Below, one piece after another: positions 53,476 to 62,000 of a stretch of 64,000 nt of DNA; the first letter of the stretch is position 1, and the number at the start of each line of letters is the position of its first letter. Where the stretch lies: IMG/VR virus record IMGVR_UViG_3300042895_002216; one strand, given 5' to 3'. The translations under genes and the position numbers were made by a program. This DNA comes from a virus (Duplodnaviria; Heunggongvirae; Uroviricota; Caudoviricetes). Under the pieces are notes generated by a model. That model made no database searches. It was not told where the DNA came from and was given only the letters and a program-made list of their open reading frames with translations.

Positions 53476-53608
53476 GAGTTCTATCCCAATTCGGATTCCT
53501 GCCTACCGCATAGTCGGACTCCCTAGTAAAATAAGTCATAATAAATTTTTTAGTGTCAATTATTCTTTTTATATTTGCTATATCAATTAACTCTTAAATC
53601 AAACCAAC

Positions 53609-54049
53609 ATGAAAAATCAAATCATTAACTCAGAAAGAATCGGCCAAGTAGACTTTATAACAGGTCAAGCAGGCGAATACCGCGCAATCGTTAAAGTTCA
53701 GGCCGGATTCATGACGGTAGTAAACGACCATGGAATCCAGTCTAAATGGTCTAGCGGCGCAAGCTGGAAGACAGCAATGGATGTTTTCCGCGGATTCAAG
53801 AAGGGAGCTTTACAAACCATCGAGTTCAGAGCGGAAGGCTTTAATACATGGTTAACTGTCTTCGCCCGCAAAGGTAACACGATAATCCTAATGGATACTG
53901 CAATGTTTCTTGAAATGGAGGTAGGCGATATCAATCAGGACTGGTCTAATAGTAATCTATACAGTCAAACTAATTACAGACTGTGTAACGCTAAGACTTG
54001 GGCAGACAAAGCGTTCGTCCGAAACAGCCAAGAGGAAGTAGCTGCTTAA
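53609..54049 (+). CDS. Early hypothetical protein
   Basis: 146 aa; follows a cassette. Confidence 0.7.
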   Translation: MKNQIINSERIGQVDFITGQAGEYRAIVKVQAGFMTVVNDHGIQSKWSSGASWKTAMDVFRGFKKGALQTIEFRAEGFNTWLTVFARKGNTIILMDTAMFLEMEVGDINQDWSNSNLYSQTNYRLCNAKTWADKAFVRNSQEEVAA

Positions 54050-54149
54050 CTCCCTAGTAAAACTTTTTAAAAATAAGTCATAAAATATTTTTTTATATCA
54101 ATTATTCTTTTTATATTTGTATCATATTAATCAATTAAAAAATCAAACC

Positions 54150-54878
54150 ATGAAAAATACAAGATTCGAAACAAGTGCGGGACTACCCCAATACTTTAAA
54201 AGCCTGGACGGATTGGCTAGACCGTTAAGTAAATGCGAAGAAGGAGCGTTAGCTGACAGAATCCAGTTAGGAGATGACGAAGCGCTTAACTCCCTAGTCA
54301 CCGCGAACCTTAAGTTCGTTGTAACCTTAGCCAACAAGTTTATTGGTATGGGTCTGCCAATCGATGACCTCATCCAAGAAGGAAACGCTGGTCTAATCGA
54401 AGCCGCTCGCAAGTTTACGTCAGACAAAGATGTTAAGTTTATTACTTACGCTCAGTTCTGGATTCGCAAGCGTCTTAACCTTGCTCTTTGCGACTTGGGA
54501 AGAACCGTTAGAATTCCAGTAAATCAGGAATACGATCTTTACAAACGTAAAATGAAAGGCGAAGAAATCAATCTTACTAACGTTGCGATTGACAAACCAG
54601 TCGGGGACGAGGACAGTGCAACAACAATCGGCGACTTGATTCTTAAGACCGATTTCGCTGATCCATTCGAGAACCAAGAGAGAGACATGATTCTTGCCCG
54701 ATTACTTGGCAAATTAAAAGCAAGCGATCGCCAAATCGTAGAGTTATTTTATGGATTGGTTGGCGATGGATTATCAACAAAAGAAATTGCAGAGTTAATT
54801 GGTAAGACTCCATCAGAAGTAAATCGTTCTCTTAAAGTTGCTAGAGCGCAAATGAGAAAGGAGGTAGTATCATGCTAA
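54150..54878 (+). CDS. Second sigma70-family factor
   Basis: ANLKFVVTLANKF, DDLIQEGNAGLIEAARKF, FITYAQFWIRK and a C-terminal HTH. Confidence 0.9.
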   Translation: MKNTRFETSAGLPQYFKSLDGLARPLSKCEEGALADRIQLGDDEALNSLVTANLKFVVTLANKFIGMGLPIDDLIQEGNAGLIEAARKFTSDKDVKFITYAQFWIRKRLNLALCDLGRTVRIPVNQEYDLYKRKMKGEEINLTNVAIDKPVGDEDSATTIGDLILKTDFADPFENQERDMILARLLGKLKASDRQIVELFYGLVGDGLSTKEIAELIGKTPSEVNRSLKVARAQMRKEVVSC

Positions 54879-55087
54879 CAATGGAACACGCAAGTACCAT
54901 GGCCGAGATGGCGGTAGATATACTCTTTGCAGAAGGAGATCTATTTAAAGGTAAGGTAGATAAGGACTCCCTAGTAAAAGAGATCCAGGCAGCAACCTTA
55001 AAGAAGCTGGTTATAGAAGATTCAGACTTCTTAACCGAAGAAGAGTTCCAAGCCTGTCTGGAAAATGCCAAGAAAAACAGTAACTAA
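54872..55087 (+). CDS. Small acidic protein
   Basis: Coupled to the sigma gene. Confidence 0.6.
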   Translation: MLTMEHASTMAEMAVDILFAEGDLFKGKVDKDSLVKEIQAATLKKLVIEDSDFLTEEEFQACLENAKKNSN

Positions 55088-55105
55088 TATTTAAAATCTA
55101 AAACC

Positions 55106-55366
55106 ATGTATAAATTAGGAAACAAATGGTCGCACAACTTCGACTACGACGGAATGCTAAAGGCTGGCTCGGAAGTAACAGTGGATACTTCTCTAGAAGA
55201 CTTGGAAAAATTGCACGATTCTTTTGAAGATGTCAATTACCATACGGAATCCGAACCGCTTTGGAACGCAATCATTGCCAAGCGAAACGGATTCGACGGA
55301 CCGTACTTTACACAGAGTATTAACGAGTTCTCGAGTCTATGCAAAGAGTGTTTAACTGAACAATAA
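55106..55366 (+). CDS. Hypothetical protein
   Basis: 86 aa; ends before a terminator at about 55384-55419. Confidence 0.65.
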   Translation: MYKLGNKWSHNFDYDGMLKAGSEVTVDTSLEDLEKLHDSFEDVNYHTESEPLWNAIIAKRNGFDGPYFTQSINEFSSLCKECLTEQ

Positions 55367-55455
55367 TAATCCATCTTTTAACTAAAGGGGTCAAGGCGAG
55401 AATCTTTGACCCCTTTTTTAGTATAATAGATATAGCCAAAATAAATAAAAAGGTT

Positions 55456-55725
55456 ATGTCAGACTTAAATAATTATACAAAGATTCTATTGGACCTCATC
55501 CATCTAAGACAGACGGATTACTCGGCCTTTATGAATCGCTTGTACGAAGCCTTGACTGGAGAATTTAAAGATGTAATACATGATAAGAGTCCAGTTGAAG
55601 ATAAGACTCAAGCAATATGGACTATGATAAAACATTTTGAGAAGAACGAAGAGTTCGAGAAATGCGCTGACTTGAAGAAGTTAGCTGACGAATTAGATCC
55701 AACCTATAAACCCGTAAACCACTAA
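55456..55725 (+). CDS. Small protein with UVR-like motif
   Basis: NEEFEKCADLK; TAGTATAAT at 55419. Confidence 0.65.
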   Translation: MSDLNNYTKILLDLIHLRQTDYSAFMNRLYEALTGEFKDVIHDKSPVEDKTQAIWTMIKHFEKNEEFEKCADLKKLADELDPTYKPVNH

Positions 55726-60052: not shown

Positions 60053-60083
60053 AAAAGGGGTCCTCAGAAGGGACCCCTTTTTT
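60053..60083. terminator. Bidirectional terminator (twin of 46403-46432)
   Basis: GGGGTCC TCAGAAG GGACCCC TTTTTT. Confidence 0.8.
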
Positions 60084-60112
60084 GTGTGAATAGGGATCAC
60101 TCCCTAGTCCCA

Positions 60113-60256
60113 TTACCCCTGACCAACTGATCTCTTAAGGTAGTTCTTAGCCGCCTTGCTGCGAGAGCTCTTGCTCTTTGCATGCACGCCCGGACGTTTA
60201 CGTTTAGAGCTCGGTCTGTGTACAGAACCGGTAGCTCCCGCTTTTGCTTTAGCCAT
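60113..60256 (-). CDS. 47 aa highly basic protein (not in track)
   Basis: MAKAKAGATGSVHRPSSKRKRPGVHAKSKSSRSKAAKNYLKRSVGQG. Confidence 0.75.
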   Translation of the reverse strand: MAKAKAGATGSVHRPSSKRKRPGVHAKSKSSRSKAAKNYLKRSVGQG

Positions 60257-60385
60257 CAGTGATATTATATTTTCTTATTATTTAATCCCAAAATCCGTGC
60301 AGTCCCGGCATGGGTTCTGGACCCTACCCCAGCTCGAGGGGTTTTCGCGCACAGTAACCTTCAACCGCCGGAAATAAATAACCTT

Positions 60386-60895
60386 ATGAAAAAGGAATTA
60401 GCAGCAGAGGATCTTGATTTTATCAGATTCTGTATAGAAGAACTGGAGATCGAGACCAGCCCCAATATCAGCATAGGCGACGACCATAACAAGGCCAAGC
60501 AGGTCCGAGCTATGGGTTACTATACACCAGTGGATAACCAGATCTGGGTACTACGCGGACTCCGGGTAGCAGCTGACTGGTACCGGACCCTAGCCCATGA
60601 ATTGGTACATTGGCGCCAGCGCGAGTTGGGCCAGCAGATGGATGGTTCGGATGGGTCAGACCTGGAGAATGAAGCTAATTCTAAAGCTGCAGTCCTACTA
60701 CGTGAATGGGGCAGAAGGGATGAAGCAATCTATAGCGAACCAGTGGTGGAGACTCAGGATGAAATGAGTAGTCCACGGACGCAATACTACCTGGAGTACT
60801 ATGGTAACCTTAGCCCATCAGGCTTCAGTCTCTCTACTGTAGGCGAAGAGGTCCGGATTACAATTCCCCCATCAGATTCCTGGCCTCAAGTATAA
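60386..60895 (+). CDS. HExxH metallopeptidase-like late protein
   Basis: RTLAHELVHWRQ...ENEAN; ATAAATAA at 60374. Confidence 0.75.
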   Translation: MKKELAAEDLDFIRFCIEELEIETSPNISIGDDHNKAKQVRAMGYYTPVDNQIWVLRGLRVAADWYRTLAHELVHWRQRELGQQMDGSDGSDLENEANSKAAVLLREWGRRDEAIYSEPVVETQDEMSSPRTQYYLEYYGNLSPSGFSLSTVGEEVRITIPPSDSWPQV

Positions 60896-61496
60896 GGTTA
60901 GTAAGGTCGTCTTTAATCTCGTCCCTGTACTCTTGTCTGTGCAGGGTTTTTTGTATAACATGTAATTCAACACCGTGCCAGGTTAGGAATCTCTCGAATA
61001 GATCTGCACCAGCAAAACGAGCCATCCGGTCCGGGGTTTCCATAACAACCATCGAGACCCGCTTGCGCAGGACAGACTCCATAATCTTGTCGAATCCGCC
61101 CCTACCTTCTAGGCTACCGGCCTTACCGATATCCCCTATAACCTGGTCTACCCTGATCCCGGCCCGGGTACAGTACTCTAGGACCCTGTCCTGCTGAGCC
61201 TGCAGCCGCTTCTGGCTAGAGACACCGGCCTTGCCCTGGTCCGGGATTCCAGCCGCCCGGCAGTATACTATCACCTCTCGAGTTTGAGGTAGTCTACTCC
61301 CTAGTAGGTAGAGTAGCTGCTGCTTGTCGTAGTAGGTCCGCCCGTTTATAGAGTTCTTCCACTTATCCACCCGGCCCTGGGCTACGTAACCTTCTAGAGT
61401 CTTCAACGAAACCCCTAGGAATTCCGCGGCCTGCTTCTTGTACATGAGTTCCCCGCTAGGGAAGGGTCTTAGTTCTTGTGTTTGTTCCTGTTCCAT
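60858..61496 (-). CDS. IS607 TnpA-like protein (MerR-type HTH plus serine recombinase fold), catalytic Ser apparently absent
   Basis: AAEFLGVSLKTL HTH; YCRAAG in place of YARVSS; PDRMARF; GVEL; late promoter at 61501; minus strand (track label is wrong). Confidence 0.85.
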   Translation of the reverse strand: MEQEQTQELRPFPSGELMYKKQAAEFLGVSLKTLEGYVAQGRVDKWKNSINGRTYYDKQQLLYLLGSRLPQTREVIVYCRAAGIPDQGKAGVSSQKRLQAQQDRVLEYCTRAGIRVDQVIGDIGKAGSLEGRGGFDKIMESVLRKRVSMVVMETPDRMARFAGADLFERFLTWHGVELHVIQKTLHRQEYRDEIKDDLTNLILEARNLMGEL

Positions 61497-61499
61497 GGG

Positions 61500-62000
61500 G
61501 TTATTTATCCGGGTACCCAGCTGCTGGTCGAGAAGTCCACGGGCCCGGGTTCCCGCGGTTTCCGGCTAGACCCCGCCTACTCGGGCCCCTCTAGACTCTG
61601 GGGCTTCCGGTCGGGCCGCGGAGCCGAGGCAGGGGTTACTCCCTAGTCCCCATAAATGCACAGTCTGTATCCTTTGGGCGCTGCCAGCTGCCTGTACTCC
61701 CTAGTCCCGAGTAGGCCGGTGGTTGGCTGGGCAGGCTGGGGTCCGGGTCCTGGCCTAGGTAAGAGTCCGGTACCTTGGTCTTGGCTAGTCTAGGTCTGGG
61801 TCTATAGGATAGGGTTCTGAATAGGGTTGGGTATAGGGTCTGGTATACCCGTTATTTTTCTTTTTATGTATATAAGTAGACAGAGTCTTGCCTATAGAGT
61901 TTCTTCTTAGAGTAGTATAATTTCTTAGAGTAGTAGGGCGCGCCTCTAAGCTTTGGGACGCAAACGTACCCATGGCCCGGGCCTGGACCCATTGGGTATA
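61500..62000. repeat. GC-rich non-coding zone with G-tracts
   Basis: Two ACTCCCTAGT copies; five GGG runs in about 61798-61838; duplication TTTCTTAGAGTAGTA near 61903-61935. Confidence 0.75.

Follow-up and report, generated by a model that had tools for sequence, protein, structure and literature searches.

The stretch analysed here, called the window throughout, comprises 64,000 nucleotides of the tailed-phage genome IMGVR_UViG_3300042895_002216 (Duplodnaviria; Heunggongvirae; Uroviricota; Caudoviricetes), a single-contig virus of 270,962 bp with 38% G+C and a 127-bp end overlap. Towards the end of the window lies an early block in which genes for a sigma-70-family factor, an AAA_25/KaiC-like P-loop ATPase and a DUF932-like protein are read from the + strand and, followed by a zincin-like gene on this strand, converge on the - strand gene of a protein that resembles the transposase TnpA of IS607-type elements. 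Spread over 8.2 kb of this block, ~3% of the genome, stand ten exact copies of the 10-mer ACTCCCTAGT, all on the + strand (Table 1). The data show that these sites exist, that selection maintains them as nucleotide sequence, that they are confined and oriented, and that they go with the TnpA-like gene across phage clades; which protein would read them, and to what effect, is a matter of interpretation.

Table 1. Word copies, genes and promoter box of the marked block (window positions)
Feature	Position	Strand	Remarks
Motif copy 1	53518..53527	+	intergenic; 43 nt past the truncated DUF6011-like open reading frame (ORF); early promoter module follows
Motif copy 2	54049..54058	+	overlaps by its first base the end of the TAA stop of ORF 53609-54049; sigma-factor gene downstream
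Motif copy 3	54289..54298	+	within sigma-factor gene, N-S-L-V; point-substitution origin at an existing xxLV; patchy in relatives
Motif copy 4	54966..54975	+	within 71-aa ORF 54872-55087, D-S-L-V; retained by several relatives
Motif copy 5	57912..57921	+	AAA_25 ATPase gene, variable linker, D-S-L-V
Motif copy 6	58668..58677	+	ATPase gene, Y-Y-S-L-V; TCC and CTA invariant in 11 orthologues, the other 87 comparable codons vary
Motif copy 7	60099..60108	+	between convergent genes; intrinsic terminator 15 nt before; within a small TAGGGA/TCCCTA palindrome
Motif copy 8	61296..61305	+	antisense in TnpA-like gene; encodes L-G-S, linker between DNA-binding and catalytic domains
Motif copies 9 and 10, phased pair	61638..61705	+	starts 61638 and 61696; 58-bp period; GC-rich non-coding DNA; ~140 and 197 bp upstream of TnpA-like start codon; 1-4 units in relatives
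Sigma-70-family factor gene of the phage	54117..54878	+	inside marked block; occurs also in sister phages without the word
AAA_25/KaiC-like P-loop ATPase gene	57719..58852	+	two sites inside
DUF932-like gene (372 aa)	58908..60026	+	variant TCTCCCTAGT at one fixed place inside in relatives
Zincin-like gene	60386..60895	+	same late-type box at 60374-60381; convergent with and overlapping TnpA-like gene
IS607-type TnpA-like gene (212 aa)	60858..61496	-	N-terminal winged helix and serine-recombinase domain, no conserved nucleophile serine; candidate word reader
ATAAATAA box	61501..61508	-	4 nt before TnpA-like ATG; putative late-type (T4 TATAAATA-like) promoter; in all clades

The first-pass annotation of this DNA had counted the ten copies by eye, and a k-mer and strand count over the whole genome bears it out: the rest of the window and the other 263 kb of the genome hold no further copy on either strand, the word being common neither genome-wide nor on both strands, and the window is likewise devoid of copies with one mismatch. 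The excess over chance, for which ~0.06 copies per strand had been expected, is as large as claimed: 100 dinucleotide-preserving shuffles of the window average 0.09 copies, and one copy is the maximum in any of them. The allocation to genes is also as described, with five copies outside credible ORFs, four in sense within + strand genes (the sigma-factor gene, a 71-aa ORF and, twice, the ATPase gene), where each reads x-S-L-V, and one antisense in the TnpA-like gene, encoding L-G-S. The gene ahead of copy 1, taken for a broken DUF6011 gene, is an ORF at 52996-53475 with a DUF6011 match that is indeed truncated (positions 6-22 of 37) and sub-threshold, and the two kinds of shared flank extension (GCTTA and GG...AAAA) are present twice each. 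The statement that polarity is independent of gene direction holds insofar as an antisense copy exists, but is overstated, as the genes of the block are almost all co-directional with the word and the sole well-supported antisense host is the TnpA-like gene.

An oriented, sequence-specific signal that marks one genome segment, as first proposed, is supported by this confinement, by the relatives and by synonymous sites, both described below, while the known signals to which it had been likened fit less well. The word is confined to one segment, equally so in relatives, and is therefore a local mark and not a genome-wide skew of the Chi or KOPS type, and likeness to parS is contradicted by a word that is not a palindrome and in which only the outer 3 bp are self-complementary (no search for ParA and ParB genes was made). 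An exact asymmetric word on one strand only could also be the target of a phage nickase, equivalent to the single-strand interruptions of T5-like, phiKMV-like or tf-like kind, and known nick consensus sequences are similar to the word in length. However, the block showed no conserved gene for a nickase, of HNH or other type, confinement to 8-18 kb and fixed 57-bp pairs are foreign to known nick systems, and the link to the TnpA-like gene would stay unexplained; nicking is considered highly improbable.

With the block's sigma factor and ATPase as queries, 26 loci were gathered from IMG/VR. Twenty-one of these hold 2-12 exact copies of ACTCCCTAGT, practically all on the strand of the sigma gene and down to 60% sigma identity, and relatives hold 8-14 word copies on one strand of a syntenic 8-18 kb block. 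Counts over whole records, for example, give 12 copies for a 94%-complete relative of 253 kb, all in 11 kb of a single strand, and 8 and 12 copies, each on one strand, for two fragments, whereas three more distant genomes (G005, G006 and G007; sigma factor 55-56% identical) have zero copies. As a variant word in the motif-free sister phages ACTCCTCAA was tried and rejected, its counts being those of a reversed-pattern control. The 100 unique copies of the relatives, 99 of which lie on the early-gene strand, give the consensus [T/G]ACTCCCTAGT[A/C][C/A][A/C], and beyond these weak preferences (T/G before, and A/C, C/A and A/C after the word) their flanks are unrelated.

Decisive for nucleotide-level selection is a codon test on the 11 ATPase orthologues, in which 89 columns combine an invariant amino acid with at least four-fold degeneracy and just two of them use a single codon, the motif TCC and CTA at Y-Y-S-L-V. 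As the motif codons are the only ones frozen, selection acts on the DNA word and not on the protein, and the word is thus kept in related phages at synonymous sites as well. The site in the sigma gene was made by point substitutions at a pre-existing xxLV and is present in some relatives only, and the number of sites per block stays steady at ~8-14 while single sites come and go by mutation, as would be anticipated where it is the count of sites that is important rather than their exact places. One-mismatch variants in relatives occur 25 times on the motif strand versus twice on the opposite strand, are of few kinds (TCTCCCTAGT, ACTCCGTAGT and ACTCCCTAGA) and amount mostly to transversions (A1T, C6G and T10A). 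Such transversion-rich, strand-biased variants fit read-out by a protein better than base pairing.

Near relatives are absent from the phage database searched, where the sole match was one distant tblastn hit of 23% identity. A word-pair scan of a genome collection found only one relative phage, a 254-kb contig binned with a Bacteroidetes metagenome-assembled genome (MAG), and the hits in Anabaena, Ktedonobacterales, Acidobacteriaceae and a Bacteroidota MAG were discarded as unrelated tandem repeats with a chance 10-mer. The relative, L064 (CAIWBA010000291.1, 254,203 bp), is of near-genome length and is filed under an 'uncultured Bacteroidetes bacterium' MAG, which may be a binning artefact or a hint at the host.

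The gene on which the block converges is the only gene with a Resolvase domain in the genome and is syntenic in all clades. Its product matches Pfam Resolvase (1.6e-11), HTH_17 (25.6 bits, below the cutoff of 27) and PHROG 6620 'transposase', and its best sequence matches among solved structures are TnpA catalytic domains from the IS607 family (3lhf, 3lhk, 3ilx, 6dgc and 6dgb). Catalytic domains of this family are also the best Foldseek matches (template modelling score by target 0.74-0.79) of an AlphaFold2 model (mean predicted local distance difference test 82.7), the N-terminal domain of which is built as strand-helix-helix-wing and, taken alone, weakly matches the DNA-bound MerR-like winged helices of RacA and BldC (E ~0.01 over ~50 residues). 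Throughout 68 homologues Y78, R80, R97, D156, R157 and R160 are invariant, among them the four active-site residues checked besides the serine (R80, D156, R157 and R160), and K47, N48 and N51-R53 of the wing are at least 98% conserved; in the L-G-S encoded at copy 8, G66 is invariant and L65 and S67 are at least 90% conserved. The nucleophile serine (Y-x-R-V-S) is not conserved: the residue at R+2 is alanine in 63 of the 68, no column holds a conserved serine, and 12 homologues have no serine whatever between R80 and R97. The neighbours of the gene are the zincin-like gene and non-coding DNA, with no tnpB adjoining (no genome-wide TnpB search was made). Single copy, synteny, the missing adjoining tnpB and the missing conserved serine therefore identify the gene as a fixed transposase derivative that is most likely catalytically dead. 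Searches with the protein returned this phage clade only, with no bacterial IS607 ancestor that carries the same motif.

The ATAAATAA box stands 4-5 nt before the ATG of the TnpA-like gene in all clades except the most distant, L076, where it lies 23 nt upstream. Since the box resembles the T4 late promoter, the TnpA-like protein is probably made late. Genome-wide, ten ORFs of at least 60 aa have the box exactly 4 nt ahead of their ATG and three others have it 5 nt ahead, a placement suggestive of a T4-like late promoter with late transcripts that are leaderless or nearly so.

Word and gene travel together. ACTCCCTAGT or its variant ACTCCGTAGT, which differ by C or G at motif position 6, co-occurs with the TnpA-like gene in three clades, two of which were found by a scan for ACTCCGTAGT and encode TnpA-like proteins 49% and 31% identical within the same architecture and confinement. 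In one ACTCCGTAGT clade the final 18 kb of a 109-kb contig contain 14 copies, all on one strand; in the other, the final 5 kb of a 114-kb contig contain 9 copies, 7 in the G form and 2 in the C form. The C and G forms can share one array. Every locus that covers the TnpA-like gene displays a phased array of 1-4 units, with copies ~140 and 197 bp upstream of the start codon, one or two copies inside the gene, of which one encodes the conserved L-G-S of the interdomain linker, and others across the convergent + strand genes. The C-form relatives at greatest distance (L019 19648-19714 and L021 20420-20486) have a second copy 57 bp away in the former active-site loop, which takes the place of the catalytic-serine segment; this copy encodes V-L-G-S, and L076, from the 31%-identity clade, has a G-form copy at the same position. 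The three sister genomes that possess a sigma orthologue but no TnpA-like gene have no word copies.

Where the sites stand with respect to genes was classified in 13 loci, with 43 intergenic, 40 in sense within + strand ORFs and 13 antisense; most of the antisense sites belong to the TnpA-like gene, the others being found in ORFs that are short or doubtful, and one is the lone inverted copy of L004. Intergenic copies lie mostly 0-30 nt past the stop codon of the upstream gene and before the next early promoter module, and in four cases the TAG of the motif doubles as the stop codon. This placement, together with the co-directionality with early genes, would also suit a signal that is coupled to transcription or acts at the RNA level and is read in the + strand transcript or in the non-template strand, such as an endoribonuclease or processing site, a factor-dependent terminator or an ops-like loading site that marks early mRNAs. 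A metatranscriptome contig of one relative, which ends 2 nt into the 58668 copy (at 58670), is a single weak hint in this direction, and the zincin-like gene could yield + strand read-through across the antisense copy and the array. However, folding of 140 unique 80-nt contexts revealed no excess stability (mean z -0.6) and equal pairing of motif and flanks, strong intrinsic terminators closely precede some copies, and L061 has the word inverted at the slot after the DUF932-like gene. No NusG/RfaH-like gene is encoded in the genome, a fixed pair spacing of 56-58 bp, even within the TnpA-like coding sequence, is not expected of RNA sites, and neither the tight link to the TnpA-like gene nor the promoter-proximal array is explained, so that an RNA-level signal is considered unlikely.

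The lake sample data consist of contigs only, and the three metatranscriptomes hold diverged relatives only, with starts, ends and strand unreadable. RNA contigs of these relatives extend neither across 60182-60849 nor across 61184-61851, which says nothing either way. One such contig starts at 58915 with an Illumina adapter, 7 nt inside the DUF932-like gene, and may represent a frequent RNA fragment end; this gene has the highest contig depth in the block. A search of the window against Rfam found nothing at the word sites and two tRNA-like hits only, at 62012-62102 and 62177-62302 (30.9 and 37.2 bits), where ARAGORN found nothing. These two tRNA-like genes (62012-62302) are alike at their ends and differ in the middle, and lake assemblies break or vary precisely there, with many joints that omit or swap the central part.

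Copies less than 120 bp apart are always separated by a spacer of 46-48 nt, giving a period of 56-58 bp, which is seen in GC-rich non-coding arrays, in isolated pairs past genes and within the TnpA-like coding sequence of distant relatives. No second conserved box lies within 40 nt of the word, and no column is conserved outside -2 to +13 (100 copies). A promoter of the phage sigma factor is ruled out by the missing partner box, by the ~40% of sites that are intragenic and by the sigma factor being kept without the word in sister phages. The early promoter module itself appears to include ATTGTTAATAACT, found six times on the + strand at 49391-57114 of the window (genome 251081-258804), in place of which distant relatives have GATTTTTTCCTGTC 16-19 times per 20 kb.

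The presence of sites at the 3' ends of small early ORFs, within DNA of mosaic composition among relatives, a word-bounded 56-bp indel between L005 and L007, an array copy number that varies from 1 to 4 and a serine-recombinase fold encoded next door could all point to recombination, with the word as a crossover site or cassette boundary (integron-attC-like or res-like) or as a hotspot that shuffles early-gene cassettes and 56-bp units. Yet the nucleophile serine is not conserved and is absent in 12 of the 68 homologues, homology between relatives breaks at the repeated promoter modules and not at the word, and directly repeated crossover sites within the essential-looking ATPase gene would delete that gene. 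Lake metagenome contigs show no joint at the word, and the only population joint in the early block (53557 to 57024) is situated in promoter modules. Recombination at the word is accordingly rated very unlikely. The joint is found in one low-depth contig, which connects its two ends via 11 other letters and skips 3.4 kb including the sigma-factor gene; both ends are in repeated early promoter modules and not at the 10-mer.

Among the smaller genes of the block, 57214-57471 of the window encodes a small early protein with a clear WYL_2 (Sm-like SH3) domain (E 2.4e-16). Motif copy 7 adjoins a 47-aa, very basic ORF rich in Lys, Arg and Ser on the - strand (60113-60256), the position of which is kept in L055 and L061. 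Outside the window, at C1:170,000-182,700 of the genome, lies a very large tandem-repeat coding region in which words like GGTTCTTCTGGAAC occur ~78 times on one strand.

With a probability of about 0.5, we read the ACTCCCTAGT sites as oriented binding sites of the domesticated TnpA-like protein. The word, with CTCCCTAGT as core and weakly preferred flanks, would then be a cis-acting DNA site for a phage protein, and a reader of this kind is natural for a 10-bp direct repeat, because the serine-less derivative keeps the DNA-binding domain and the oligomerizing catalytic fold. A precedent is the TnpA of IS1535, which nucleates via its winged helix on four 9-bp direct repeats and subsequently spreads and bridges a second DNA (PMC6188088), while BldC binds head-to-tail on direct repeats (PMC5859096). 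By analogy, the candidate reader may nucleate on the phased array that lies immediately upstream of the promoter of its own gene and may also occupy the 8-14 dispersed co-oriented sites across the early block, which is transcribed towards the reader gene.

What the bound protein would do may be surmised from known systems. The stoperators of L5 type are asymmetric sites in short intergenic spaces that are active in one orientation relative to transcription, and Cluster A mycobacteriophages possess more than 20 such asymmetric 13-mers in promoters and short intergenic spaces, which follow the direction of transcription and are inactive when reversed (PMC9283540). Reader-bound sites might similarly constitute an orientation-dependent block of + strand transcription; the sites would face RNA polymerase that has left the early genes and heads for the TnpA-like gene, which is convergent and late. 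The early genes could in this way be shut off late or insulated, and the TnpA-like gene could be protected along with its promoter. A block effective in one orientation is suggested because uniform orientation, placement past stop codons and confinement to the early block all fit, and a late-made protein that blocks + strand transcription in a stoperator-like manner is put forward tentatively as the specific role. The main alternative for the same reader is a scaffold that bridges or compacts DNA, as in the paired-end complexes of IS607 or in RacA/ram; direct repeats would be what a two-fold symmetric bridge needs in a folded-back loop.

Several observations weigh against the TnpA-like protein as the reader or against its use as a transcription block. 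The array period of 56-58 bp differs from the 10-11 bp phasing of the IS1535 motifs; a simple DNA-binding model does not in itself demand one orientation; and ~40% of the sites are intragenic while the leftmost 6 kb of the early block are without sites, which is odd for a pure shut-off device. The co-occurrence of word and gene is phylogenetically confounded, as the three motif-free genomes G005, G006 and G007 may equal one or two independent contrasts. The DNA-binding domains of the window and of L021 are only ~34% identical (hand count on the alignment) despite an identical word, and their recognition helices differ at many positions with the wing alone strictly kept. No change in the wing matches the exchange of C for G at motif position 6, and covariation hence lends no support. 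A distant TnpA homologue (26% identity) in G008 has no obvious oriented word cluster nearby, though this case is uninformative.

Other kinds of genome handling have to be weighed here, as their DNA sites might be read by the TnpA-like or by another protein: origin iterons for the pair of AAA_25 ATPase and DUF932-like protein, a pac/TerS-like region, or a RacA/ram-like anchoring zone. Direct repeats do stand near and within the P-loop ATPase gene, which has weak DnaB/primase-helicase PHROG matches, the word is confined to one segment, and small terminases, too, are usually winged-helix proteins expressed late. The DNA-binding domain moreover resembles that of RacA, a protein that uses clustered sites to mark a zone of the chromosome (PMC4914108). 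On the other hand, the spread over 8-18 kb, the irregular spacing and the frequent turnover are unlike compact iteron or pac arrays, and a sister phage has an ATPase orthologue (38% identity) without the word. The gene of the terminase large subunit (TerL; genome 198.2 kb) lies ~57 kb away from the word cluster, and the classical pac site to which the word had initially been compared thus fits poorly as well. We consider such genome handling distinctly unlikely.

Compared part by part, the word system behaves most like the stoperators, while its components derive from IS607. Shared with the stoperators of L5 gp71 and relatives are many short asymmetric sites (13 bp there, 10-13 bp here), situated in short intergenic spaces and elsewhere with an orientation that follows transcription. 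Stoperators, however, are spread over the whole genome instead of one early block, and their reader is an immunity repressor (helix-turn-helix plus 'stoperator' domain) that silences the prophage, whereas the candidate here is a transposase-derived protein under a late-type promoter. Furthermore, the elongation stop in one orientation belongs to L5, transcription block being put forward here by analogy, with no role in lysogeny evident. The IS607-family TnpA proteins (IS1535, IS607 and ISC1926; PMC6188088) have the same domain order, provide the best sequence and fold matches and likewise have short (9-10 bp) direct repeats by the 5' side of the gene, with nucleated binding of multiple dimers documented for the family. 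In contrast to them, the phage protein lacks a conserved catalytic serine, an adjoining tnpB and mobility (single-copy and syntenic), and the repeats are 56-58 bp instead of 10-11 bp apart, with further copies 8-18 kb away.

The REP/RAYT pair (TnpA-REP; PMC8266576) resembles the phage system in that a domesticated transposase gene is accompanied by many short cognate repeats, often just downstream of genes. It involves, though, a Y1 (HUH) transposase and palindromic hairpins on both strands, genome-wide in bacteria, as opposed to a serine-transposase derivative and a non-palindromic word without fold signal on one strand of one phage segment, and a REP/RAYT pair is ruled out by the missing hairpin and the serine-recombinase fold. 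The MerR-like winged helices of BldC and of RacA, the protein of the RacA/ram system, lack the MerR dimer arm (PMC4914108, PMC5859096) and are by weak matches structurally closest to the predicted DNA-binding domain, but ram sites are inverted repeats over hundreds of kb and neither RacA nor BldC has a recombinase domain. Cumulatively, we propose as a possibility that a dead serine-transposase derivative serves as a late-phase organizer of the early block in large freshwater Bacteroidota phages through 8-14 co-oriented 10-bp sites nucleated from an array, acting by a one-direction stop or by folding, and that this stoperator-like arrangement may have evolved independently from IS607.

With respect to novelty, full-text literature searches found no prior description of the word or of a domesticated IS607 TnpA in phages, and for the word itself only chance matches in nucleosome-positioning sequences. 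The word is a cheap and very specific metagenome marker for the early block of this phage clade, and the protein-site pair, with 10 bp asymmetric and apparently strict, could be an orthogonal DNA-binding module. If the proposed reading is true, this would be the first case found in which a domesticated transposase of IS607 type (serine) has sites dedicated to it, and a second, independent invention of oriented stoperator-like marks in phages; it would also offer a concrete way into the question of how early genes are turned off or partitioned in uncultivated T4-like jumbo phages of Bacteroidota.

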